NCBI GenBank assembly: GCA_963718585.1
Contig: OY970357.1
Coordinates: 570,001-602,000 of the forward strand
Source: Candidatus Saccharimonadota bacterium
GTDB taxonomy: Bacteria; Patescibacteriota; Patescibacteriia; 2-12-FULL-60-25
Reading direction: 5' to 3'
Length of the DNA: 32,000 bases
Shown in pieces: positions 1 to 31,501 of the stretch. Within the stretch, counting starts at the first letter, position 1. Each line of letters starts with the position of its first letter. Under the pieces are notes generated by a model. The model saw only the letters and a program-made list of their open reading frames with translations. It was not told the DNA's origin and made no database searches. A program made the position numbers and the translations under genes.

Positions 1-556
1 ACGCCGCAGGTTGGCGGATGGATCCGCCAGTATCGGATCCGAGCGCCGCCAAACAGAAATGCGCTGCGACCGCGACCGCACTGCCGCCGGAAGACCCGCC
101 CGGAACGCGTTCCGGATCACGTGGATGATACGTCGGACCGTATGCGGAACGCTCGGTCGACGACCCCATCGCGAATTCATCCATGTTCGTCCGTCCGAGG
201 ATCACGGCGCCCTGCTCCTTCAACTTCCGTACGACCGTCGCATCTGACGCGGACACGTGTCCTGCGAGGATCTTCGATCCCGCCGTGACCATCTTTCCCT
301 GATCGAGAAGATTATCCTTCAGCGCGATGGGGAGACCGTCCAATACGCCGTTCCGTTCTCCGGAGGAACGACGATGGTCCGCCCGACGCGCGGCTTCTAG
401 GGCGACATCCTCATACGTCGCCAAGAATGCGTGCAGCGCGCCGTCGAGGGATCGGATCTCCTCCAGACACGCCTTCGTCACCTCTTCGGACGAGATATCT
501 CCACGGTCGAGCCGCGAACGCGCCTCCGTAAGGGTCAGTTGGTTCAATCGGTTCAT
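1..556 (-). CDS. gatA: Glu-tRNA(Gln)/Asp-tRNA(Asn) amidotransferase subunit A, N-terminal part (gene continues beyond the left edge)
   Basis: Minus-strand ORF absent from the track because it is truncated by the window edge. ATG is the reverse complement of 554-556. Translation MNRLNQLTLTEARSRLDRGDISSEEV...LPIALKDN...GRTNMDEFAMGSSTE...GGSSGGSAVAVAA...GSDTGGSIRQPAA carries the amidase-signature Gly/Ser-rich motif. It lies downstream of gatC. Confidence 0.9.
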   Translation of the reverse strand, partial: MNRLNQLTLTEARSRLDRGDISSEEVTKACLEEIRSLDGALHAFLATYEDVALEAARRADHRRSSGERNGVLDGLPIALKDNLLDQGKMVTAGSKILAGHVSASDATVVRKLKEQGAVILGRTNMDEFAMGSSTERSAYGPTYHPRDPERVPGGSSGGSAVAVAAHFCLAALGSDTGGSIRQPAA

Positions 557-690
557 ACGATAAAAAGAATGTCATCTCGACCGAAGCGGAGAGATCTTCG
601 TATTGATGATTCTTGTGGCGCTCTCGACAGGGGTTTCATTGGGAAGACCCCTCGTCGCACCGACTTCCCTCGTGATGACATCATTCTCAT
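553..690 (-). CDS. 45-codon bridging small ORF across the gatC-gatA spacer (hypothetical; possibly only a ribosome relay)
   Basis: ATG (688-690 rc) lies 2 nt after the gatC TGA. Its TGA (553-555 rc) overlaps the gatA ATG as ATGA. Peptide: MRMMSSRGKSVRRGVFPMKPLSRAPQESSIRRSLRFGRDDILFIV. It falls below the 60-aa cut-off of the supplied track. Confidence 0.3.
   Translation of the reverse strand: MRMMSSRGKSVRRGVFPMKPLSRAPQESSIRRSLRFGRDDILFIV
567..686 (-). other. Structured intercistronic element (closing stem, inner hairpins, possible H-type pseudoknot)
   Basis: Closing-stem pairs are 567-571/682-686, 572-576/674-678 and 578-579/671-672. Inner hairpins are 582-586/596-600 and 626-634/647-656 (one bulge). 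GGGAAG at 641-646 is complementary to CTTCCC at 664-669. Confidence 0.4.
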
Positions 691-692
691 AT

Positions 693-1001
693 TCAGTTTT
701 TCCCTTTCGGATTCTCGAACACCCCGGGCGTCTTCAACAGATTCCCGCTCTTCACAGGAAAATTCGCAAGGATCAATTCGCGCGTCGCATCATCGGATGC
801 GAACGCAACGTCTTCGCGCCATCCTTCAGCCCGCGCTGGCATGGTCAACGGCTGGACTCCTTCCGTCCCCACTTCTTTCAACCGCTCGACATAGACAAGG
901 ACCTCGTCCAGGTCGTGCACCATGGATGCGGCTTCCGTATCTGTGAGCTCCAACCGGGCCAGATCGGCCAACGCGGCGATATCCTCTTTTTTCAGTGACA
1001 T
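693..1001 (-). CDS. gatC: Glu-tRNA(Gln)/Asp-tRNA(Asn) amidotransferase subunit C
   Basis: 102-aa ORF MSLKKEDIAALADLARLELTDTEAASMVHDLDEVLVYVERLKEV...; typical GatC size and N-terminal pattern, upstream of gatA. Confidence 0.9.
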   Translation of the reverse strand: MSLKKEDIAALADLARLELTDTEAASMVHDLDEVLVYVERLKEVGTEGVQPLTMPARAEGWREDVAFASDDATRELILANFPVKSGNLLKTPGVFENPKGKN

Positions 1002-1020: not shown

Positions 1021-3156
<2,136 letters not shown>

Positions 3157-5898: not shown

Positions 5899-6513
5899 TC
5901 AACGTTGATAGATCCGTGAGGACACCGTCGTTTGTGCCTGAAGCGTCACATTCTCCTTCGGCTGATCCGAGATGTACTTCAATCCGAGGCTGACCGTCAC
6001 ATATGGCTGGATGTTGTTGGGATACGATCCGCCGACCTTGATAAATGGGTCCTGCGTGGGCTCGAGATACACGTCAAAATTGGTCACATCAACCCGATTC
6101 GCCGTCACCTGCGTCCACGTCGCGCCATCATCGATCGATAGCATGAGACAATGACTGACGATCGTATCCTGGCACTTTGGACTTCCAGTGCTGCTTTCGC
6201 GTGCGATCCAAATATGGATCCCGTTCGATTTGAAGAGTTTGAGGATCGCATCCTTTTCAGCGGGACCTGCAGAATAATCGATGGTGTCGTTCCGCGCTTC
6301 ACGCACGATCGCTTCCATCGCATAGCGCATATCCTGTCCAAGGACCGCCTTGTCCGCGACCCTCCGATGTAATTGATTGAACGAGATGAATATCTGCGAG
6401 AGTGCGACCGCCATCAACATGAAAATGAATGTCACGATCAACATCTCGACCAGGGTGTAGCCCGGCGCGAGAGATGGTTTCCGCGTTGATGTATTGACTC
6501 GGGAACGAGTCAA
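5899..6513 (-). CDS. GspJ/PilW-like minor pseudopilin (start uncertain: TTG 6513, or in-frame ATGs up to 6753)
   Basis: Class III signal ...KPSLAPG|YTLVEMLIVTFIFMLMAVAL with Glu at +5. TTG 6513 gives a 17-aa leader, MTRSRVNTSTRKPSLAPG. The track ORF stays open in frame up to ATG 6753, overlapping the upstream gene by 14 nt. Confidence 0.7.
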   Translation of the reverse strand: MTRSRVNTSTRKPSLAPGYTLVEMLIVTFIFMLMAVALSQIFISFNQLHRRVADKAVLGQDMRYAMEAIVREARNDTIDYSAGPAEKDAILKLFKSNGIHIWIARESSTGSPKCQDTIVSHCLMLSIDDGATWTQVTANRVDVTNFDVYLEPTQDPFIKVGGSYPNNIQPYVTVSLGLKYISDQPKENVTLQAQTTVSSRIYQR

Positions 6514-6648
6514 TGACGGATCGGACGTTTTTTGCGTGATGAGATGCGATGGTTTAGACCAGATGGACTTCGAAAATGGAATGAAACGCGACGAGCTGGA
6601 ACGAGTCGACAAAGGATCGGACGTTTTATGCGTGATGAGATACGAAGG
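6503..6648. repeat. Two 50-nt direct repeats with a 96-nt period upstream of or within the pseudopilin 5' region
   Basis: 6503-6552 versus 6599-6648 match at 43 of 50 positions (gaacgagtc...ggatcggacgtttt.tgcgtgatgagat.cga.gg). A perfect 9-bp hairpin at 6493-6501/6506-6514 contains the TTG candidate start. Confidence 0.85.
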
Positions 6649-6739
6649 CCTGGACGGCGAGACCGCCGGAGACGTATTGAACATACGACGAGGACGGGCT
6701 CGACGGAAGGCCGAGCGAATCGCGCGCATAAAACGTTCG

Positions 6740-7321
6740 TTATCGCCAGTCATACAGATCGTCGTAGACAGTTACACTCTTCGCTATCCCCTTTCGCGTC
6801 CATTGGACTTTTGATTCGACACGTACCCCTTTTTTGGTACCTGCCGCACACGTATTAGGCGGATCTAGGACGGTGATCGCGCCGGAATCGCAGATCGGAT
6901 GGAAAGTGATCAAGCGAGCGTACGGCGTTGAAGTTCCGCTCGTACCCTGTCCATAGAACGTTCCCCCATTGATCAAGAACACCCTCGCTCCCGCGTCTGT
7001 GATCGCGTTCGCTGTAAAATCGAAGGATGGGACCGTACCCGCCTGACCGATCCATGCGGAGGTTCCTGTGTAGTTCGTCGAGTCTCCGACCGCATACAGA
7101 CCTGTATCAAAATCCGCTCCTGCAAGCCAGTTCGAATCCCGGACCTCCTTGGCAAGCTCCACTCCTTCACGCGCCATATTCACTGCGACCACCTCATCCG
7201 TATCCCGATCCACAAGCGCCAAATTGGAATAGACGATCGCCATCGCGGACATCAACCCGACACTGATCACCATCAGGGCGATAAGCATCTCGATCATGGT
7301 CTGTCCGTGTCGCAATCGCAT
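6740..7321 (-). CDS. GspI/PilV-like minor pseudopilin
   Basis: MRLRHG|QTMIEMLIALMVISVGLMSAMAIV: prepilin cleavage/methylation motif with Glu at +5. It sits in the pseudopilin row. Confidence 0.75.
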   Translation of the reverse strand: MRLRHGQTMIEMLIALMVISVGLMSAMAIVYSNLALVDRDTDEVVAVNMAREGVELAKEVRDSNWLAGADFDTGLYAVGDSTNYTGTSAWIGQAGTVPSFDFTANAITDAGARVFLINGGTFYGQGTSGTSTPYARLITFHPICDSGAITVLDPPNTCAAGTKKGVRVESKVQWTRKGIAKSVTVYDDLYDWR

Positions 7322-11081: not shown

Positions 11082-11087
11082 AGTTCG

Positions 11088-11096
11088 ATATTAGCA
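11088..11096 (-). promoter_or_regulatory. Extended -10 element immediately upstream of pilC (leaderless design)
   Basis: Minus strand reads TGcTAATAT (11088-11096), followed by 6 nt (cgaact) and ATG 11081. No SD is present. Confidence 0.35.
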
Positions 11097-11232
11097 CGGC
11101 CACAAGCGGGCTTCACGTCTTTTCACAGCCGTTCAGAATGGATGAGATGCGCCGGGCTGGAGCCTGAAAAAACCGCAAGCGTATGACACATACGATGAGG
11201 ATTATTTCGGGCGAAGCCCAAGTAGATCGCCA

Positions 11233-11616: not shown

Positions 11617-11631
11617 AATGAGGTCAATGGC

Positions 11632-11733
11632 CTATGAATTTCGATGGAACGCGCCTTGCTGGACCGAGCAGACGACGCAGGCGTACGGATGGGACCACGA
11701 GGAGGAAGCGGGCAGACAGATCGCGTTTTTCAT
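11632..11733 (-). CDS. 33-codon small ORF spanning most of the pilB-receiver spacer (hypothetical)
   Basis: ATG lies 6 nt after the pilB TAG. TAG stop is 15 nt before the receiver ATG. Peptide: MKNAICLPASSSWSHPYACVVCSVQQGAFHRNS. Confidence 0.2.
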   Translation of the reverse strand: MKNAICLPASSSWSHPYACVVCSVQQGAFHRNS

Positions 11734-11739
11734 GTGGCG

Positions 11740-14578: not shown

Positions 14579-15670
14579 TCAAGGACTCACGGCGACCGTA
14601 CTGGTCGAAGCGCGCAAAGCGAGGTCGTTGAGGGTCAAAGAGAGCTGAAAATCCACATTCGTCGCATCATTCGTGGATGTCGAGTATTGCATCGCGTAAT
14701 TCGGCGCCTGCACAGAGGTGATGAAATCCGCATGCTGGAAGACCGAGACCTGTCCTGCCGCAGACTCGATGGATCTGGCCTTCACCCCCAGAGAAAGCGT
14801 GCCGTCCGAGGTCAACGAAAACGAATTATACGCGACATCTGGAAGCGTATGCGATTCGATCAGCTGAAGAAGATGGGTCGGACTGACGTGCTGATCAAGG
14901 AGTTGATTCAAGGCCACCAGCCGCGGTTCGAGATCTTGGAAATCCGACCACTGCTTCTGTTTCGATGCGATATCTTGCTGGACCTGCGTGAGCTGATCCT
15001 GCGCCTCCTGCTTGCTCGCATCAGCTCCCGTCAACTGATATCGCAGGAGCGCATAGCTTCCGCCCAAAAGAATGAGGAACAGGACCGCTGCCGTCGCAAA
15101 GGTGAAACGCCGTTTTGCGACGTCGATATGCAACATGCGAAGCTCTTCTTCTGAGACGAAGCTGACATGGAGCGGTTTGCGGACCCGTTTGATGATCCGG
15201 ACGCGATGCGGCGCCGTCGCGGACGGCGTAATGCGAGCCTTTGGCTTAGCCGGAGCGGCTGGCGCCATACCTGCCGGCGCCATAGGAGGTTTAGCCGGGA
15301 GAGCGGCACCCATGGGTGGAACCGGCGCGCCCAACGGCGCCATTCCCGTCTTTTTTTCTGGCGGTTTGAAAAATTGCGGTGGCGCTTTCGGCGGTGGTGC
15401 GATCGGCTGAGGCTTGAACAACTTATCCTTCAAACCCTGTAGAAAGGCCGTGGCTTTATAGACAAAACGAGTCAATGGCGGTTCGTTCGCCAAGATCTGA
15501 TCCAGCTCTCCCTCGTCCACTTCGATGACCTCGACCTCCTCCCCTTCGTCGGCCGGAACGGAGAACTTCAACTCTTCCGGTTTGGGAGGTTCCGGTTTGG
15601 GTTCATGCTTCTTCAGTTCCTCTTCTTTGCCGCGTTGATTTTCGGGAAGAAGGGAGATCTCGTCACTCAT
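14579..15670 (-). CDS. pilN: PilN-like protein with a long acidic/Pro-rich cytoplasmic insertion
   Basis: The N-terminal ISLLPE matches the conserved PilN INLLP-type peptide. The TM lies at about aa 190-209, followed by a coiled coil and a periplasmic-type domain. About 175 aa of Glu- and Pro/Ala/Met-rich sequence lie between the motif and the TM. Confidence 0.7.
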   Translation of the reverse strand: MSDEISLLPENQRGKEEELKKHEPKPEPPKPEELKFSVPADEGEEVEVIEVDEGELDQILANEPPLTRFVYKATAFLQGLKDKLFKPQPIAPPPKAPPQFFKPPEKKTGMAPLGAPVPPMGAALPAKPPMAPAGMAPAAPAKPKARITPSATAPHRVRIIKRVRKPLHVSFVSEEELRMLHIDVAKRRFTFATAAVLFLILLGGSYALLRYQLTGADASKQEAQDQLTQVQQDIASKQKQWSDFQDLEPRLVALNQLLDQHVSPTHLLQLIESHTLPDVAYNSFSLTSDGTLSLGVKARSIESAAGQVSVFQHADFITSVQAPNYAMQYSTSTNDATNVDFQLSLTLNDLALRASTSTVAVSP

Positions 15671-15834
15671 GGATCGTCTTTTCTATGACATGCCGCGATA
15701 CACGGCCCTTGATGAACGCTGAAATGCGATGAGACGCGCTGGGTTGGAGCAAGACGTGCGTGAGACGTACTGAAGCGTACGGCGAAACGCACGCCGCAGC
15801 GAAACCCAAGCAGATCGCGCATTTCAGATGTCAT
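15667..15834 (-). CDS. 55-codon bridging small ORF across the pilM-pilN spacer (hypothetical; possibly only a ribosome relay)
   Basis: ATG (15832-15834 rc) lies 2 nt after the pilM TAA. Its TGA (15667-15669 rc) overlaps the pilN ATG as ATGA. Peptide: MTSEMRDLLGFRCGVRFAVRFSTSHARLAPTQRVSSHFSVHQGPCIAACHRKDDP. Confidence 0.3.
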   Translation of the reverse strand: MTSEMRDLLGFRCGVRFAVRFSTSHARLAPTQRVSSHFSVHQGPCIAACHRKDDP

Positions 15835-15835
15835 A
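15684..15835 (-). other. 152-nt extended imperfect hairpin filling the pilM-pilN spacer
   Basis: Nested stems: 15684-15691/15828-15835 (8 bp), 15719-15728/15818-15827 (10 bp), 15740-15745/15803-15808 (6 bp), 15755-15761/15787-15793 (7 bp) and 15766-15770/15777-15781 (5 bp). Confidence 0.55.
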
Positions 15836-15836
15836 C

Positions 15837-16904
15837 TTATTCGATGTCGCGCATGGCACAGCCGATCGCTACGGAAAACCGCGGTCCGATCTCATCCAAA
15901 ACGGGCCGCAGATCCAAAGGATACACGACGCGCGCCCAGGGGTCTCCTAGGTAGGCGTTCACGTTCATGAGCGAGGTCACGAATTCAGGCAGATTCGGCA
16001 ACAACGCGGAGCCGCCCGTCAGGATGATCTTATCGATCCGCTTCTGAACCCCGCCTTCGCTCTGCCCCTGATACATATTGAACGAATACCGGATCTCATC
16101 GATCACCGGTTTCAGCAAGGTATTCAGGATCGGTGTGATATCGCTCGCCTGTGCAAAACTTTGCATGGCGCGGATATCACGCTTCATGTTCTCCGCCTGT
16201 TCAAACGGGATGCCGATGGTCTTGGAGATCGTCTGAGTGATATTGATCCCGCCGGCGGCGACCGATCGATTGAGGAACGGGATCCCCTTATCAATGACCG
16301 AGATGTTCGTCCGCGTGGAGCCGATATCAATGACCATGATGCTCGACCGATCCTTCCCCACGAGTGACCGGATCTCCGCGAACGCTTCGGTCTCAAGTGA
16401 GATGAGCTCCAGGTCGGCTTTTTTCATCAATTCGATATATTTCTGGACGAGCGACTTCGGCGCCCCGGTCAGGAGCACACGCGTGGTCTTCTTCTTACCA
16501 TCCCCCGAGATCGTATCGATGATCTTGGAATCGAGTGATACCTCCTCCAACGGGACCGGTATGAGTTTCTTCGCCTGCCACTGGATCGCATCTTTGATCT
16601 CCTTATCCGAGTTCCCCGGGACGCTGATGATCGACGAGAAGACCGCTGAGATCGGCAACGCTCCCACGACAAGCTTGGTCGTGCACTTTGATTTGGACAG
16701 CATCTTCTTCACGAACTTGGCCGTCTTATCCACATCTGCGCCAAGGGCCGTTTCGATGTCCGGCGTCGGGAGCGCCGCATGCGCATAGGTCACGAGACGC
16801 GCGCGCCCCTTCTCGTTCTGCAATTCGACGATCTTGATGCCGGATTGGCCGATATCGAATCCGATGTAACTCTGCTTCTTCGATTTGGTGGAGAAAAGGC
16901 TCAT
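15837..16904 (-). CDS. pilM: PilM, actin-like ATPase of the pilus alignment complex
   Basis: 355 aa: YIGFDIGQSGIKIVEL..., IMVIDIGSTRTNISVI..., ILTGGSALLPNL. These are actin/HSP70-fold phosphate-binding motifs typical of PilM/FtsA-like proteins. Confidence 0.9.
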   Translation of the reverse strand: MSLFSTKSKKQSYIGFDIGQSGIKIVELQNEKGRARLVTYAHAALPTPDIETALGADVDKTAKFVKKMLSKSKCTTKLVVGALPISAVFSSIISVPGNSDKEIKDAIQWQAKKLIPVPLEEVSLDSKIIDTISGDGKKKTTRVLLTGAPKSLVQKYIELMKKADLELISLETEAFAEIRSLVGKDRSSIMVIDIGSTRTNISVIDKGIPFLNRSVAAGGINITQTISKTIGIPFEQAENMKRDIRAMQSFAQASDITPILNTLLKPVIDEIRYSFNMYQGQSEGGVQKRIDKIILTGGSALLPNLPEFVTSLMNVNAYLGDPWARVVYPLDLRPVLDEIGPRFSVAIGCAMRDIE

Positions 16905-19071: not shown

Positions 19072-19497
19072 CTACCGCTTCTTCTTCCCCGACCCCTCAT
19101 CCATCGCCTGATTAGAAAGTGCGTCTGCGTGTGTATTATATTCGCGCCGCACGTGGCGGTATTTCACGTGTCCACCAAGCTGAGTCTCGAGATTCTTCAT
19201 TTCCAGATACCGCGCACCGATATCCGGATTCTTGACCCGATATTCCCCGTTCGCCTGTTTGACGAGCAGTTCACTGTCCGCGACGATCTCGACGGATGTC
19301 GCGCCGATCGCGACCGCGCGTTGAAGCCCGAGGATCACCGCCCGATATTCCGCCTGATTGTTCGTCGTCTTCCCAAGATACTTTGCATGCTCTTCAAGGA
19401 CCTTTCCATGCGCATCCTCGATGACCACACCGATCCCGGCAGGGCCTGGATTCCCGCGCGCGCCACCGTCCGTATGGATGATGAGATGTTTTGTCAT
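19072..19497 (-). CDS. rnhA: Ribonuclease HI
   Basis: HTDGGARGNPGPAG...NNQAEYRA...IVADSELLV...NTHADALS gives the DEDD catalytic pattern of type 1 RNase H. Start chosen at MTKHLIIHTDGG; upstream in-frame GTG 19530 and ATG 19515 are possible. Confidence 0.85.
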   Translation of the reverse strand: MTKHLIIHTDGGARGNPGPAGIGVVIEDAHGKVLEEHAKYLGKTTNNQAEYRAVILGLQRAVAIGATSVEIVADSELLVKQANGEYRVKNPDIGARYLEMKNLETQLGGHVKYRHVRREYNTHADALSNQAMDEGSGKKKR

Positions 19498-19533
19498 TGC
19501 GATATCCGCTTTCATTACCACGACTTCCACTCC

Positions 19534-24405: not shown

Positions 24406-26220
24406 TTAACGTGAATCTCCACGGCGAAGGACCTTGATGAAGGCGTCGGAGGGGATCTCCACACTCCCCTTCCCCATGCTCATCATCTTGGACTTCCCCT
24501 TTTTCTGTTTTTGAAGCAGCTTCATTTTGCGCGTTACGTCGCCTCCGTACAAGTACCCGGTCACGTCCTTGCGATATGCAGACAATCGCTCAGACGCGAT
24601 GACCTTGGCTCCGATGGCCGCCTGGATCTTGATGACGAATTGCCGTCGCTCAAGCGTCTCCTTGAGCGTTTCGACGATATGCCGCCCGCGGAATTCGGCC
24701 TCCGATCGATGAACGAGTGACGACAGCGCCGGGACCGGTTCCTCCGCGACCAGGATATCAAGGCGCACGATATCCGCCAGCCGATATCCGATGAAGTCAT
24801 AATTCAGCGACGCATACCCCTGCGTCACGCTTTTCAGCCGGTCGTAAAAATCGACGATCACGCTGGCAAGCGGCATCTCAAAGTGCATGACCGCGCGTTC
24901 GGCATCAAGCCATTCCGTGGTCTGGAACGTCCCACGCCGCTCGGTCACGATCGTCATGATCGCGCCGAAGTAGGATGATGGCGTGACGATGTCCACCTTG
25001 ACCCACGGTTCGCGCGTCTCCTGTAGAAATGACGGGTCCGGGTAATCAAGCGGCGACGTGACGACCACCTGGGTCCCATCTGTCTTCACGACCTCGTAGG
25101 CCACGGACGGCGTGGTCACGATCACTTCGAGGCCGCCTTCGCGCCGCAACCGTTCCTGCACGATCTCGAGATGCAACATCCCAAGGAGTCCGCACCGGAA
25201 GCCGAATCCGAGCGCGGTGCTCTGTTCCGGTTCATAGGTCAGCGCGGCGTCATTCAACCGTAAGCGTTCCATCGCGTCGCGCAGACGGTTGTAGGCATCG
25301 CCCTCTTTGGGAAAGATCCCGGCATAGACCATGGGACGGACGACCTTGTATCCCGGGAGCGCCTGCGTATCCGCGACGCGCGAACGGACCGCGACCGTGT
25401 CCCCCACGCGAACCTCCGTGATCTCTTTCAATCCCGTGACGATATACCCGATCTCCCCGGTCGCAAGGGCGGAGGAAGCTATCAGTGCGGGTTTCAGATA
25501 CCCGACTTCGAGTGCATCACCGTCTGCCTTCGTCGCCATGAACCGCAATTTGTCGTTCTTTGTGATCGTCCCATCCACCAAACGCACGTACGCGACCACG
25601 CCGCGATAATCGTCGTATTTGGAATCAAAGATGAGCGCCCGCGGTGGCTTTGATGGATCGCCAGATGGGGATGGCACGCGCTGGACGATCGCCTCCAGGA
25701 TCGCGGGCACGCCCTCTCCGGTCTTTCCCGATGCGGTCAGGATCTCCTCGCGCTTACAGCCGATGAGCTTGATGATCTCCTCGGCACGACGCTCTACGTC
25801 CGCATTGGGCAGATCGATCTTGTTGAGCACGGGAATGATCTCCAGATTCTGCTCGATCGCGAAATAGAGGTTCGCGATGGTCTGTGCCTGCACACCTTGC
25901 GTCGCGTCGACGAGGAGCAAGGCGCCCTCGACCGCTGCAAGGGAACGGTTCACTTCGTAATGAAAGTCGACATGACCGGGCGTGTCGATGAGATTCAATT
26001 GATATTCCGATGTATCTTCACCGATATATTTCATCCGTGCGGGCTGAAGTTTGATCGTGATCCCCCGCTCCCGCTCAATATCCATGGTATCGAGCATCTG
26101 TGCCTGAAGCTTCCGTTTTTCAACGGTTCCCGTGACCTCAAGCAACCGATCGGCAAGCGTACTCTTGCCGTGGTCGATATGCGCGATGATGCAGAAATTT
26201 CGGATGTGGGATTGGTCCAT
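24406..26220 (-). CDS. lepA: Elongation factor 4 (translational GTPase LepA)
   Basis: IRNFCIIAHIDHGKSTLADRLL (G1), DTPGHVDF (G3), NKID (G4), full EF4 length (604 aa) and a LepA-specific C-terminal region. Confidence 0.95.
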   Translation of the reverse strand: MDQSHIRNFCIIAHIDHGKSTLADRLLEVTGTVEKRKLQAQMLDTMDIERERGITIKLQPARMKYIGEDTSEYQLNLIDTPGHVDFHYEVNRSLAAVEGALLLVDATQGVQAQTIANLYFAIEQNLEIIPVLNKIDLPNADVERRAEEIIKLIGCKREEILTASGKTGEGVPAILEAIVQRVPSPSGDPSKPPRALIFDSKYDDYRGVVAYVRLVDGTITKNDKLRFMATKADGDALEVGYLKPALIASSALATGEIGYIVTGLKEITEVRVGDTVAVRSRVADTQALPGYKVVRPMVYAGIFPKEGDAYNRLRDAMERLRLNDAALTYEPEQSTALGFGFRCGLLGMLHLEIVQERLRREGGLEVIVTTPSVAYEVVKTDGTQVVVTSPLDYPDPSFLQETREPWVKVDIVTPSSYFGAIMTIVTERRGTFQTTEWLDAERAVMHFEMPLASVIVDFYDRLKSVTQGYASLNYDFIGYRLADIVRLDILVAEEPVPALSSLVHRSEAEFRGRHIVETLKETLERRQFVIKIQAAIGAKVIASERLSAYRKDVTGYLYGGDVTRKMKLLQKQKKGKSKMMSMGKGSVEIPSDAFIKVLRRGDSR

Positions 26221-26232
26221 AGGCGGTCTGCG

Positions 26233-26382
26233 TCATCGCGCAAAGGGAAGGGTCGGAAACCGTGAGGTTTCCGTGGCGGAGGGAGGATGCAAAGCATCCT
26301 GGGAACCGATGGCTTCCCAGGAGTCCGCCTCGTGCGGACGACGGACGATGATGCAGAAATTTCGGATGTGGGATCGGTCCAT
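26233..26382 (-). CDS. 49-codon upstream ORF starting with the duplicated lepA N-terminus (hypothetical leader ORF)
   Basis: MDRSHIRNFCIIVRRPHEADSWEAIGSQDALHPPSATETSRFPTLPFAR. It is in the same frame as lepA, and its TGA lies 12 nt before lepA ATG 26220. The promoter -10 sits 11 nt upstream of its ATG. Confidence 0.25.
   Translation of the reverse strand: MDRSHIRNFCIIVRRPHEADSWEAIGSQDALHPPSATETSRFPTLPFAR
26254..26339 (-). other. Four consecutive hairpins between the two lepA 5' copies
   Basis: 26254-26261/26266-26273 (8 bp), 26285-26290/26294-26299 (6 bp), 26297-26305/26314-26322 (9 bp, sharing 3 nt with the previous hairpin) and 26323-26328/26334-26339 (6 bp). Confidence 0.6.
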
Positions 26383-28321: not shown

Positions 28322-29947
28322 TCAGAGCCCCTGCGCCTCCTCCGCCCCTTCGATGGATGCCGGCTGACGGAAGAGTCGCCGATTCACGGCCGCGAGAAGC
28401 TGGGCGAGCTCCGGCGAACGGAATAAATAGGCGACGAGCAAGAAGGCGCAGGCACCGACCGTCCCGGCCGCTGCCGCCTGAAGAGCCACCTGCCAGAAGG
28501 TCCGCAGGGGTAAAACGGATCCGATGAACTGCCGGACCGGATAACCCGCCGCGATCACGGCGATCGAAGCGATAAAGGTCCGCCCGAACGAACCAAAATA
28601 TTCCTTTTCATGCAGCGATCCGTATTGTCGACGCAACTGCCACCATAACAGCAAAAGATTCACATAGGTCGCAATGGAAAAAGCCACGGCAAGGCCATCC
28701 ACGCCAAAACGATGATAGAGAAGCAATGCGGCGCAGATATTAGCCGCCTCAGAGACGAAACTCACCCAAAACGGCGTCCGCGTGTTCTGCAACGCATAGA
28801 AAGCCCGCGCAAAAAGCGGAACCAATGCCTGACCTAAGAGCGAGACGGTAAAGATCCCGAGGACCGTCGCGGTCCGGATCGTGTCATCCCAACTGAATTC
28901 GCCGGCCCCAAGAGCCAAACGCACGATCTGCGCGCGAAGAAGGAAGAATAACGCCGTGACCGGAAGGATCAAGAACGTCACCTTCCGCATCGAAGAGACG
29001 AGGGTCTTTTTGAAATGTTCCTGATCTTTCAAACTCGCGTATTTCGCGAGGAGGGGAAAGGCGGCGACGGCGAAGGAGATCCCGAAGAGACCGACCGGAA
29101 AGGATTGAAGGTTATTCGCAAGATTGAAGATCGACACGGAGCCGACCGCGAGCGTGGAAGCGATGCTTAACAGGATGACGAGGTTCAACTGGCTCACGGC
29201 CAGCCCAGCCGTCCGTGGCGCCATGAGGAACATGATGCGTCGCACGCCAGGCGAACGGAGGGAGGGCCGCGGCAACTTTCGCAGTCCAAGGCGAAGCACG
29301 ACGGATGTTTGGACCGCAAAATGCATGAGCGCACCGAGGATCACGCCCCATGCCACCCCTTCGACACCCATGTGCGGCACGAGAAAGATCGCGCCGAAGA
29401 TGATCCCGAGGTTATACAGGACCGGAGCCAACGCAAACGCCAGCATGCGCCGCGTCGCCTGCAGGATCCCGCCCATGACCGCAGAAAGGCCGAGCAGGAA
29501 CGGCGACAGGAACATGATCCGTGACAGCCGGACCGTCAGCGCCATGAGATCCGGGGGGAAACCCGGAACGGTCAGCGGAACGATGAGCGGCGCGAAGAAT
29601 GCGAGCAGCGCACACGTGATCGCCATGGTCGCGGCGACCACGGACAAGACCTGCTCGGCGAGCTGCCACACCTCATGCCGCTCGCGCTTTTCCAGATACT
29701 CCGCAAAGACCGGGATGAAACCGGCGGACAGCGCGCCCAGGATCACGAGATTATACAGAAAGTCCGGAACGCGGAACGCGGCGTAATACGCATCCAGCGC
29801 GTGACCGGCGCCGAAGGTCCCGGCAAGCGTGCGATCACGCAGGACGCCGACAAGACGCGACGCGAGCGACGCCGCACCGACGATGAACGCCGCGGTCGTC
29901 AGACCGTTCGTCTCTCCGTGCCAAAGCTGGGCAAGGCGTTTCAACAT
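28322..29947 (-). CDS. murJ: Lipid II flippase MurJ (MviN family)
   Basis: 541-aa polytopic protein. N-terminus AAFIVGAASLASRLVGVLRDRTLAGTFGAGHALDAYYAAFRVPDFLYNLVILGALSAGFIPVF is the characteristic MurJ/MviN pattern. Confidence 0.92.
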   Translation of the reverse strand: MLKRLAQLWHGETNGLTTAAFIVGAASLASRLVGVLRDRTLAGTFGAGHALDAYYAAFRVPDFLYNLVILGALSAGFIPVFAEYLEKRERHEVWQLAEQVLSVVAATMAITCALLAFFAPLIVPLTVPGFPPDLMALTVRLSRIMFLSPFLLGLSAVMGGILQATRRMLAFALAPVLYNLGIIFGAIFLVPHMGVEGVAWGVILGALMHFAVQTSVVLRLGLRKLPRPSLRSPGVRRIMFLMAPRTAGLAVSQLNLVILLSIASTLAVGSVSIFNLANNLQSFPVGLFGISFAVAAFPLLAKYASLKDQEHFKKTLVSSMRKVTFLILPVTALFFLLRAQIVRLALGAGEFSWDDTIRTATVLGIFTVSLLGQALVPLFARAFYALQNTRTPFWVSFVSEAANICAALLLYHRFGVDGLAVAFSIATYVNLLLLWWQLRRQYGSLHEKEYFGSFGRTFIASIAVIAAGYPVRQFIGSVLPLRTFWQVALQAAAAGTVGACAFLLVAYLFRSPELAQLLAAVNRRLFRQPASIEGAEEAQGL

Positions 29948-29950
29948 GGA

Positions 29951-30283
29951 TCAGGAAAAATCATCGTGCAATTCGAGCATCGCGTACACGTTCCCATCTT
30001 CGACGAACACGTCGATCGGCGCGAGGCGCGTCCCTTCGGGCGCTTGTCCCGCCAGCCGCTCCCCGGTCGCGGGATCGAATTCCGCCTGATGCATCCGGCA
30101 CCGCAGGACGTTCCCGCATAACTCGGTCGTGCCACCCATGTGCGTGCAGGCATTCACGTAGGCGCGCAGGGTCCCGTCACGATTGACTGCGATCCCCTTG
30201 CGCGGGCCGTACGCGAACGTTGAAGAAGATCCATCCCGGATCTCCCCTTCGCGCGCGACAAGGACCTTTCGCCGGATCGACAT
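29951..30283 (-). CDS. Small Rieske-like [2Fe-2S] domain protein
   Basis: CTH-x13-CRMH (ACTHMGGTTELCGNVLRCRMHQAEFD) in a 110-aa protein. The spacer is shorter than the 15-17 residues I recall for classical Rieske centres. Confidence 0.8.
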   Translation of the reverse strand: MSIRRKVLVAREGEIRDGSSSTFAYGPRKGIAVNRDGTLRAYVNACTHMGGTTELCGNVLRCRMHQAEFDPATGERLAGQAPEGTRLAPIDVFVEDGNVYAMLELHDDFS

Positions 30284-30291
30284 GGTCGCGA

Positions 30292-31032
30292 TTATGACGG
30301 ATCGTCCCCTTCCTGTCGATCCGTCTCCTCTCCCCCCATATCGTAATCGAACAGGTCTTTTTTGATCGAACCTTTGGTCATCATATGGAGTTCGCCGAAG
30401 AGATATTTCATCGCGATGGAAAGACGTCCGTCTTTTTCCAACCGACGGACGGACGCGGCGATCGGGTGTGACCGCAAGATGCCGAACGTATGCCCCTGCT
30501 TTTTGGCGCGCTGGACATAGTCATGGTCTTCCGCGAACACGACATCCTCATCGAACCCATTGATCCCGTGATGCGCATGCCGCCGCACGAGGATGCAGAA
30601 CCCAGGCGCATGCGGACGGATCTTTTCGGTCGCGATGACGTAGGCGTTGTATGCTTCGTGCAACGCGCGATCGATCGGCTTGCGACTCAACGGCCTCACT
30701 TTGCATGTCGCGACATCGAGCCCTTTGCGATCCATCTCTGCGACGCATTCTTCGAGGAACTTGCTCGACGGCAACTGCACATCCGCGTCGAAGAACGCGA
30801 TGATGTCACCTTCCGCATGCAAAGCCCCTTTGTTCCGTCCGGGACCCGGCATCCCTCCTTCGACCACGCGGGCGCCGTACGACGTGGCGATCTCTGTCGT
30901 CGTATCCGTGGAATGCGCATCCGCGACGATCACCTCATAGTCTTTGAACGTCTGCGCCTTGATCGTCTCAAGGAGCTTTGGAAGCATCTTTTCCTCATTT
31001 TTGACCGGGATCACGATAGAAACGCGTGGCAT
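30292..31032 (-). CDS. Family 2 glycosyltransferase
   Basis: VSIVIPVKNEEKMLPKLLETIKAQTFKDYEVIVADAHSTDTT...IAFFDADV: GT-A fold with a DxD motif. Start placed at ATG 31032 (MPRVSIVIP), 7 nt after the upstream stop. Confidence 0.88.
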   Translation of the reverse strand: MPRVSIVIPVKNEEKMLPKLLETIKAQTFKDYEVIVADAHSTDTTTEIATSYGARVVEGGMPGPGRNKGALHAEGDIIAFFDADVQLPSSKFLEECVAEMDRKGLDVATCKVRPLSRKPIDRALHEAYNAYVIATEKIRPHAPGFCILVRRHAHHGINGFDEDVVFAEDHDYVQRAKKQGHTFGILRSHPIAASVRRLEKDGRLSIAMKYLFGELHMMTKGSIKKDLFDYDMGGEETDRQEGDDPS

Positions 31033-31039
31033 AGATCCA

Positions 31040-31501
31040 TTATACGCGAACATGCTGCATCGCGTACGCCGCGATGCCCGCCGCGACCGCGACGTTCAAC
31101 GATTCCTTCGTCCCCAGCTGCGCGATGGACACGAGGTCATCACATCGATCGCGAAGCGTGGGCGGGATGCCGGTGACTTCATTTCCAAGCAAGAGCGCGG
31201 TCATTTCCTCCGGCTGATAGGACGCGAGATCAAGAGCCCGCGCATCCAATTCAAGTCCGACGATGCGGAATCCATCCGCATGCAGTTCATCGATCACAGA
31301 GACGACATCTGTCCGCTGTTCCCAGGTGACGCTCTGCTCCGCACCGAGCGCGGTCTTCCGCACACCCGGATGGTCGCCCGACGGCGTGTATCCCGTGATC
31401 CACAATTTCGTCACGCCGAGTGAATCACAGGTACGCAACAAGGACCCCACGTTCTGCGCGGAGCGGATATCATTCGCGATGAGATGGAGGACGTTCGACA
31501 T
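31040..31501 (-). CDS. SpoU/TrmH-family RNA 2'-O-methyltransferase
   Basis: 153 aa: NVGSLLRTCDSLGV..., ALLLGNEVTGI..., SIAQLGTKESLNVAVAAGIAAY. These are the SPOUT motifs 1-3. Confidence 0.88.
   Translation of the reverse strand: MSNVLHLIANDIRSAQNVGSLLRTCDSLGVTKLWITGYTPSGDHPGVRKTALGAEQSVTWEQRTDVVSVIDELHADGFRIVGLELDARALDLASYQPEEMTALLLGNEVTGIPPTLRDRCDDLVSIAQLGTKESLNVAVAAGIAAYAMQHVRV

Follow-up and report, generated by a model that had tools for sequence, protein, structure and literature searches.

A hairpin-forming insert at the gatC-gatA junction of an Uhrbacteria-like patescibacterium, and a small open reading frame that may carry ribosomes across it

The stretch of DNA analyzed here (the window) comprises 32,000 nucleotides of the 1.08-Mb contig OY970357.1 (assembly GCA_963718585.1), and its host is an Uhrbacteria-like member of the Patescibacteria, or candidate phyla radiation (CPR). 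Close to its start lie ligA, gatC, and the 5′ part of gatA, all read on the minus strand, with a spacer of 136 nt between gatC and gatA (692..557), which we name E1. This spacer, the small open reading frame (sORF) that crosses it from one gene to the other, and the hairpins found at the same junction in related genomes are the subject of this work (coordinates in Table 1). The N-terminus of GatA (MNRLNQLTLTEAR) aligns with that of its relatives, which supports the ATG at 556–554, and the remainder of the gene, running off the window, is supplied by the Logan contig L007 (7.4 kb, identical to the window over 2064 nt), giving a full-length protein of 475 aa. The closest GatC proteins in a set of 5.8 billion protein clusters are at most 66% identical.

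Fourteen other gatC-gatA junctions were read besides that of the window. At six related loci (L001, L002, L004, L005, L014, and L020) the two genes lie 2–5 nt apart, and at eight (L003, L008, L011, L012, L017, L019, L022, and L023) a palindromic hairpin begins 0–6 nt past the gatC stop codon, measuring 85–95 nt in seven of the eight and closed by a perfect outer stem of 20–24 bp in five. This distribution strongly supports the view that E1 is an insertion at the gatC-gatA junction. The original prediction had read 136 nt between the genes on the minus strand, as we do, and had called the spacer a regulatory or inserted RNA element; the second half of that description holds, while for the first no known regulatory class could be recognized (no Rfam family, terminator, or promoter, and no support for a pseudoknot; see below). 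The nearest relatives of the window by GatA (L008, L011, and L012, at 78–79% identity) all bear the hairpin, and over the GatA tree it is present in most lineages and missing from two or three subclades, a patchy pattern more in keeping with an old element and precise losses than with numerous gains. As a separate observation, three of the hairpin-less loci (L002 791–899, L001 819–892, and L005 99–202) carry another palindromic family, with sub-hairpins of the CCCCCTTACGAAGGGGG type, the L002 copy lying just upstream of ligA. Hairpin repeats at gene junctions seem to be common in this clade.

The hairpins of the relatives are conspicuous structures, with z scores of −9.2 to −11.5 in L008, L011, L012, and L019a and of −6.6 for the spacer of L003, and in each 5–6-kb locus scanned (L003, L008, L011, and L012) the gatC-gatA hairpin was the only long inverted repeat. 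Their arms vary between genomes and are complementary within each. In a model-guided alignment 94.4% of the cells were paired, both sides had changed at 24 of the 30 outer-stem pairs, and the covariation score was 0.619 versus 0.158 for shuffles (none of 500 reached it) and at most 0.115 for slid partners, figures that apply to an alignment fitted to the model, in which both strands of each hairpin were entered as rows. The centre holds a shared core, TTGCTGCGG(A/G)(A/G)CTCG ... (R)TCCTCGCTG, and pairwise similarities connect all the hairpins; a scan of viral contigs with the 18-nt core returned two chance matches within unrelated open reading frames (ORFs). The comparison of junctions among relatives that had been proposed as a check has brought out covariation in the stems of the relatives' hairpins and no conserved peptide.

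Such strong covariation, with perfect outer stems of 20–24 bp, could mean that the hairpin is functional in itself, as an intercistronic stem-loop acting on the mRNA as a site of RNase III-type processing or as a barrier for 3′ stability, which would uncouple or tune the levels of gatC and gatA in the manner of Correia, enterobacterial repetitive intergenic consensus (ERIC), and repetitive extragenic palindromic (REP) elements, the sORF being incidental. All copies are oriented as the genes are, their left edge always falls 0–6 nt past a stop codon, and RNase III cleavage of co-transcribed hairpins of transposable elements of the miniature inverted-repeat type (MITEs) is documented (PMC10969869). 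We consider this explanation unlikely, since the stem of E1 is eroded (a perfect core of 9 bp, z about −3), since the palindromes show no strand asymmetry and few G-U pairs, as a palindrome kept at the DNA level would, and since it leaves the excess of bridging ORFs described below unexplained.

E1 itself has a more modest structure. The minimum free energy (MFE) fold of the whole spacer reaches −46.4 kcal/mol (z = −2.17), with 4 of 200 shuffles folding equally well, and trimming to the arms (560–690) gives z = −3.23, with 1 of 200 shuffles matching it; the folding of E1 is above chance, yet modest. The closing stem is real, although the limits first given (567–579 with 671–686) were too narrow: the arms extend over 560–586 and 664–690, are separated by 77 nt, and share a perfect 9-bp core (682–674 with 576–568) with pair probabilities of 0.76–1.0. 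Two inner hairpins are likewise present in the MFE structure, shifted to about 626–653 and 590–613 from the 626–656 and 582–600 proposed. A pseudoknot, or a mutually exclusive alternative hairpin, had also been suggested, and here the prediction finds no support. GGGAAG (669–664 on the RNA) is complementary to CUUCCC (646–641), but the forced helix reaches only −35.9 kcal/mol against the −46.4 of the MFE, 10.5 kcal/mol worse, with a pair probability of about 2e-7, and in the MFE structure GAAG pairs with another CUUC. Both forms were rejected.

The spacer being structured, and gatCAB being under T-box control in some Firmicutes, a cis-regulator of a known kind acting on gatA (T-box, riboswitch, attenuator, or pseudoknot switch) comes to mind. 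We regard it as very improbable. Rfam gave no match at the gathering threshold across the whole window, the spacer included, only noise (E > 2) for positions 400–1100 at E ≤ 10, and, for five relatives' loci, spacers included, at E ≤ 1, only miRNA-precursor look-alikes (E 0.4–0.9). A scan of E1 found no promoter or terminator on the coding strand, the alternative helix is energetically disfavored, and the relatives conserve nothing beyond a hairpin whose arms vary.

In other parts of the window, searches with nhmmer and pairwise tests uncovered one repeat family whose copies occupy four further operon junctions, each on the coding strand and within a type IV pilus cluster; none was found outside this cluster in the window or in L007. 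The copy next to the pilM-like gene, E2, forms a long hairpin (z = −3.2), an ATG lies 2 nt past the upstream TAA, and a 55-codon sORF (15667–15834) ends in a TGA that overlaps the next ATG, a geometry identical to that of E1. E2 is flanked by TA/TGACAT...ATGTCA/TA and is significantly similar to the gatC-gatA hairpin of L019, which links the repeat family of the window with the hairpins of the relatives. Closing stems covary even within this genome (CUGAAAUGCG/CGCAUUUCAG in E2 versus CGUUUUAUGCG/CGCAUAAAACG in the copy before the pilin-like gene), and the copies starting at 11082 and 11617 fold no better than shuffles. The 284-aa ORF at 5899–6753 (minus strand) probably represents a pilin-like gene whose N-terminal extension is false: its prepilin motif (G/YTLVEM) begins some 95 codons in, roughly its first 80 codons cross two tandem repeat elements, a TTG near 6513–6511 is the probable true start, and a portion of this start region (GATCC..T.GACTCGTTCC) has a duplicate about 100 nt upstream.

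A family spread in this way might be no more than selfish DNA, and E1 a neutral remnant, MITE-like or similar to REP doublets (REPINs), or a quasipalindrome, decaying in a tolerant junction; intrastrand template switching would preserve the complementarity of the arms, gatA would initiate independently, and the ORF would owe its existence to chance and to few stop codons. The patchy presence on the GatA tree agrees with this, as do the tandem and decayed copies (L019b, the second copy upstream of the pilin-like gene, and those at 11082 and 11617, with z about 0), the derivation of the L017 spacer by internal deletion, the erosion of E1, and the TA...TA flanks at E2 and L003. It is nevertheless a tentative explanation, possible and still rather unlikely. 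Arms that differ among the copies of one genome are unlike the terminal inverted repeats (TIRs) recognized by a transposase, no transposase or REP-associated tyrosine transposase (RAYT) was found in 37 kb (the window and L007), and the element has been kept at one orthologous site across lineages with about 70–80% GatA identity. A further argument on each side comes from the bridging ORFs.

The sORF of E1 (MRMMSSRGKSVRRGVFPMKPLSRAPQESSIRRSLRFGRDDILFIV) has the geometry originally described for an ORF running from the gatC stop to the gatA start, with its ATG 2 nt past the gatC TGA and its own TGA (555–553) overlapping the gatA ATG as ATGA. An upstream stop abutting or overlapping a downstream start, the arrangement of termination-reinitiation, is thus found at both ends. 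The sORF ATG occupies the position that the gatA ATG has in the relatives lacking an insert, with the same ..ATATG surroundings. Being intact from ATG to TGA and positioned for coupled translation, the frame might encode a functional 45-aa micropeptide, for instance an accessory or regulatory peptide of GatCAB, and we give this very little credence: no homologue of the peptide turned up among 5.8 billion clustered proteins, the ORFs of homologous elements run in different frames with respect to the core, leaving no shared peptide, and the E1 peptide is Arg/Ser-rich and of low complexity.

Bridging ORFs recur at the other insert-bearing junctions. We scored as a relay any ORF starting −2 to +20 nt from the upstream stop and ending within 20 nt on either side of the downstream start. 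Relays were found at 8 of 14 element-bearing junctions versus 1.83 expected from dinucleotide shuffles (P = 2.5e-5), and with ATG starts only at 6 of 14 versus 0.67 (P = 1.2e-5), P values that are optimistic, the scoring rules having been fixed after the data were seen. None of the five genuine other spacers of the window has one; a sixth apparent control, the 344-nt gap between MurJ (28322..29947) and a glycosyltransferase (30292..31053), is filled by an ORF of 110 aa for a Rieske [2Fe-2S] protein (29954–30283, minus strand) and was not counted. When the spacers were reverse-complemented in place, relays appeared at 3 of 14 junctions, or at none with ATG starts only. The contrast for ATG-started relays (6/14 sense, 0/14 antisense) speaks against a neutral remnant, for which it may be said that reverse-complemented spacers are somewhat open too (5/12 with any start codon). 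At the L023 junction a GTG overlaps the gatC stop (GTGA) and the ORF terminates in ATGA on gatA; the ORFs of L003 and L011 terminate 13–14 nt beyond the gatA ATG, those of L012, L022, and the pilB-response regulator junction (G11617) 15–18 nt short of the downstream start, and in the copy before the pilin-like gene and in L017 the ORF continues in frame into the downstream gene, making two fusions. The recurring feature is openness to translation and not a peptide. The claim that the ORF keeps ribosomes flowing to gatA gains indirect but real backing from the 8 of 14 relays against 1.8 expected, the identical geometry at pilM, and the overlaps in L023, while the missing peptide homologue and the unconserved frame speak against it.

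The gatA gene has no Shine-Dalgarno sequence, as had been pointed out, and this does not set it apart: among 31 gene starts inspected across the window, about 27 lack one too and only about 4 carry one that is recognizable. Several start contexts recur among the genes of the window, such as ..TTGATCTATG and ..GATCCATG.

Our preferred reading, to which we give a probability of about one half, is that E1 is an eroded copy of a palindromic hairpin-forming insert, crossed by an sORF that serves as a ribosome relay. The ancestral gatA AUG would have stood 2–5 nt past the gatC stop, downstream of the GGAGG-like codons that end gatC. A palindromic insert, of the kind found at gatC-gatA in much of this Uhrbacteria-like clade, would then have moved gatA 136 nt downstream and would be co-transcribed with its neighbors, its long interrupted stem beginning 2 nt past the gatC stop. 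A ribosome terminating on gatC may open the stem at its base, resume at the AUG that occupies the old gatA start site, read 45 codons through the hairpin, terminate at the UGA within AUGA, and initiate again at gatA. Coupling by termination and reinitiation at ATGA/TGATG overlaps is an established mechanism (PMC6728339). The sORF would in this case be a relay offsetting the polarity of an untranslated, structured gap of 136 nt, and not a peptide gene. What the sequences show is the insertion, the hairpin, the placement of the ORF, the repeated occurrence of such ORFs, and the covariation of the relatives' hairpins; co-transcription, translation of the sORF, reinitiation, and the common descent of E1 and the relatives' hairpins are all things we infer.

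A number of observations weigh against this reading, the first group concerning the place of E1 in the family. Membership was judged on features drawn from L003, L008, L011, L012, L019, L022, and L023. By position E1 belongs, its stem starting 2 nt past the gatC TGA on the coding strand (0–6 nt in the family). By its stem it does not: the family has an uninterrupted outer stem of 15–24 bp, arms of up to 26 nt, a centre of 35–50 nt, and z of −9 to −11.5, and E1 has arms of 27 nt that are 74% complementary, a 9-bp core, 77 nt between the arms, and z = −3.2. We searched with a hidden Markov model (HMM) of six gatC-gatA hairpins, an HMM of ten, Smith-Waterman alignments with shuffles, and a covariance model, R1. 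Neither the HMMs (nhmmer) nor Smith-Waterman against shuffles found significant similarity of E1 to any family member in either orientation, and R1, with filters off and E ≤ 10, finds L003, L008, L011, L012, L022, and L023 and not E1. Look-alikes of the core (TCGGTGCGA ... TCTCCGCTTC) stand in E1 in the right order and places, with no significant alignment (P ≥ 0.06), and 9 nt at the stem base (TATGAGAAT) are identical in E1 and L022. No second copy of E1 was found, blastn-short and nhmmer against the window and all related loci returning only E1 and its own reverse complement. E1 resembles the family by position and architecture, and sequence kinship cannot be shown; at the orthologous site it would be the most diverged and eroded of the copies, or perhaps a replacement.

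The remaining points of this kind concern the relay and the RNA. The probability that an ORF bridges E1 by chance, taken alone, is about 0.05–0.14. The after-the-fact choice of scoring rules has been mentioned (the excess survives several definitions), three element-bearing junctions (L008, L019, and G11082, between the response regulator and pilC) are without a full relay, and ORF frames differ between copies relative to the conserved core. The gatA AUG sits in an unpaired AU-rich stretch of the MFE structure, and because of this, and because most genes here are without a Shine-Dalgarno sequence, gatA may initiate by itself. Finally, sense and antisense strands of the hairpins fold equally well and G-U pairs are rare, so the palindromes could stay perfect at the DNA level, by template switching, without any RNA function.

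A bolder proposal is that hairpin and bridging ORF are a selected module enforcing one-to-one coupling, or that the conserved core is a new active structured RNA. A perfect stem right after the stop would hide the next start, only a ribosome finishing the upstream gene would enter the relay and unzip the stem, and strict coupling of GatC with GatA, and of pilus subunits, would be gained in a genome mostly lacking Shine-Dalgarno sequences. We think this improbable. Returning to the insert crossed by a relay, if this reading is true, it shows a streamlined genome, poor in Shine-Dalgarno sequences, tolerating or exploiting palindromic inserts inside essential operons, the insert becoming a translated bridge between cistrons. 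It would also define a hairpin family with strong covariation, kept at gatC-gatA across an uncultured clade and without a model in Rfam, on which the coupling of translation and the processing of mRNA could be studied in CPR bacteria. If it is false, E1 is one more decaying palindromic repeat and a useful warning for annotation, since inserts of this sort give rise to spurious N-terminal extensions and to small ORFs. The hairpin family, for its covariation and its relay-ORF pattern, is more interesting than the eroded E1 alone. In the papers searched, no account of elements like these was found for CPR bacteria.

Table 1. Features of the gatC-gatA locus, of the related copies in the window, and of the spacers of the relatives (window coordinates; MFE, minimum free energy).
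Feature	Position	Strand	Size and remarks	Source
ligA	3153..1021	minus		
gatC	693..1001	minus	102 aa; stop TGA at 695–693	ORF list; Pfam GatC on identical protein
gatA 5′ part (amidase)	1..556	minus	ATG 556–554; runs off window start	
E1 spacer, palindromic insertion (strongly supported)	557..692	minus	136 nt	absent at six related loci (spacing 2–5 nt)
Bridging (putative relay) sORF	553..690	minus	45 codons	ORF list
E1 closing stem, 5′ arm on mRNA	664..690	minus	holds sORF ATG (690–688) and a 3-nt ATG bulge	inverted-repeat search; MFE
E1 closing stem, 3′ arm	560..586	minus	27 nt, 74% complementary to 664–690	inverted-repeat search; MFE
E1 inner branch 1	617..661	minus	apical hairpin about 626–653 (GAGGGGUCUUCCCAAUGAAACCCCUGUC)	MFE
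E1 inner branch 2	590..613	minus	weak hairpin	MFE
E2, pilM-like (15837..16904) to gene 14579..15670	15671–15836	minus	166-nt spacer	
Copy, pilB to response regulator (G11617)	11617–11739	minus		
Copy, response regulator to pilC (G11082)	11082–11232	minus		
Copy upstream of pilin-like gene	6618–6739	minus		
Partial tandem copy upstream of pilin-like gene	6520–6617	minus		
L003 spacer			110 nt; perfect 21-bp stem	
L008 spacer			173 nt; 26-nt arms, 96%	
L011 spacer			113 nt; 24 bp perfect	
L012 spacer			116 nt; 24 bp perfect	
L019 spacer			234 nt; two tandem copies	
L022 spacer			106 nt	
L023 spacer			112 nt	
L017 spacer			47 nt; internal-deletion derivative of L023 type	

Some other features of this genome were seen in passing. 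A 37-nt direct repeat (26184–26220 and 26346–26382, with 36 of 37 positions identical) places a second version of lepA codons 1–12 ahead of the gene itself. This upstream repeat opens an ORF of 49 codons (26233–26382, minus strand; MDRSHIRNFCII plus 37 residues) which stops 12 nt before the lepA ATG, its stop lying inside a 16-nt arm (26227–26242) that has two possible pairing partners, the upstream repeat and lepA codons 8–13 (26180–26195), the latter pairing putting the start codon in a loop. The arrangement resembles a leader-ORF switch or else an insertion accompanied by an unusually long duplication. A comparable origin of E1, as a duplicate of the 5′ end of gatA, was considered and rejected for want of similarity. 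On L007 (4137–4213), beyond the window start, an intergenic hairpin between the genes for LGT and a pyridine-nucleotide oxidoreductase pairs tandem AGCTAGA-like units with TCTAGAT-like ones and is not obviously related to the other elements. A 152-aa RNase H/RVT_3-like protein (19072–19530, minus strand) adjoins recJ and is of the plain RNase HI type, not a retroelement.

Several known systems resemble these elements in part. REP and REPIN sequences, and stabilizing or processing hairpins such as the REP of malE-malF and the RNase III sites of phage T7, share the placement of a hairpin just past a stop codon within an operon, and a REPIN-like size of about 90 nt. Here, however, no consistent GTAG/CGTC tag or RAYT is in view, the stems are much longer, and the arms are unconserved; E1 in particular ends without the tag, arms differ between copies, and no Y1 transposase was found in the window. 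Rickettsia palindromic elements are also palindromic repeats that stay open to translation where they land, and at two of our junctions, those of the pilin gene (5899..6753) and of L017, the element is fused in frame at the N-terminus in this manner. A family of such coding elements would be expected to encode a conserved peptide; in our case no homologue of the E1 peptide was found in the clustered proteins, the frames differ between copies, peptide conservation is lacking, and the ORF mostly forms a cistron of its own joining a stop to the next start.

Bacterial MITEs, such as Correia of Neisseria and ERIC (also intergenic repeat units, IRU) of enterobacteria, are alike in measuring about 100–150 bp, in having long arms that give an mRNA hairpin, in inserting into operons, and in carrying no transposase (PMC10969869), as well as in being present or absent at orthologous sites and in the possible TA flanks at E2 and L003. 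E1, with its imperfect 27-nt arms, its 136 nt, and no coding capacity besides the sORF, has the makeup of one. At the ends of E1, E2, and L003 one can mark out TA...TA, and (T)ATG recurs at both ends, these being matches of 2–4 nt with boundaries that are not fixed. A TA-duplicating MITE of the IS630/Tc1 type (TA/TG...CA/TA at E2 and L003) was among the candidates and was dropped, the arms differing within the genome and no transposase being near. Unlike TIR-defined MITEs, the arms here vary even within a genome while the centre is conserved, no parent insertion sequence is seen, one orthologous junction is occupied across deep divergence, and no second copy of E1 was detected in 37 kb. Coupling by termination and reinitiation (PMC6728339) offers a parallel to the sORF itself, which starts 2 nt past the gatC stop and ends in ATGA on gatA, as the ORF of L023 combines GTGA with ATGA; what differs is that coupling would here pass, putatively, through a relay cistron of 45 codons made by an insertion and not directly from gene to gene.

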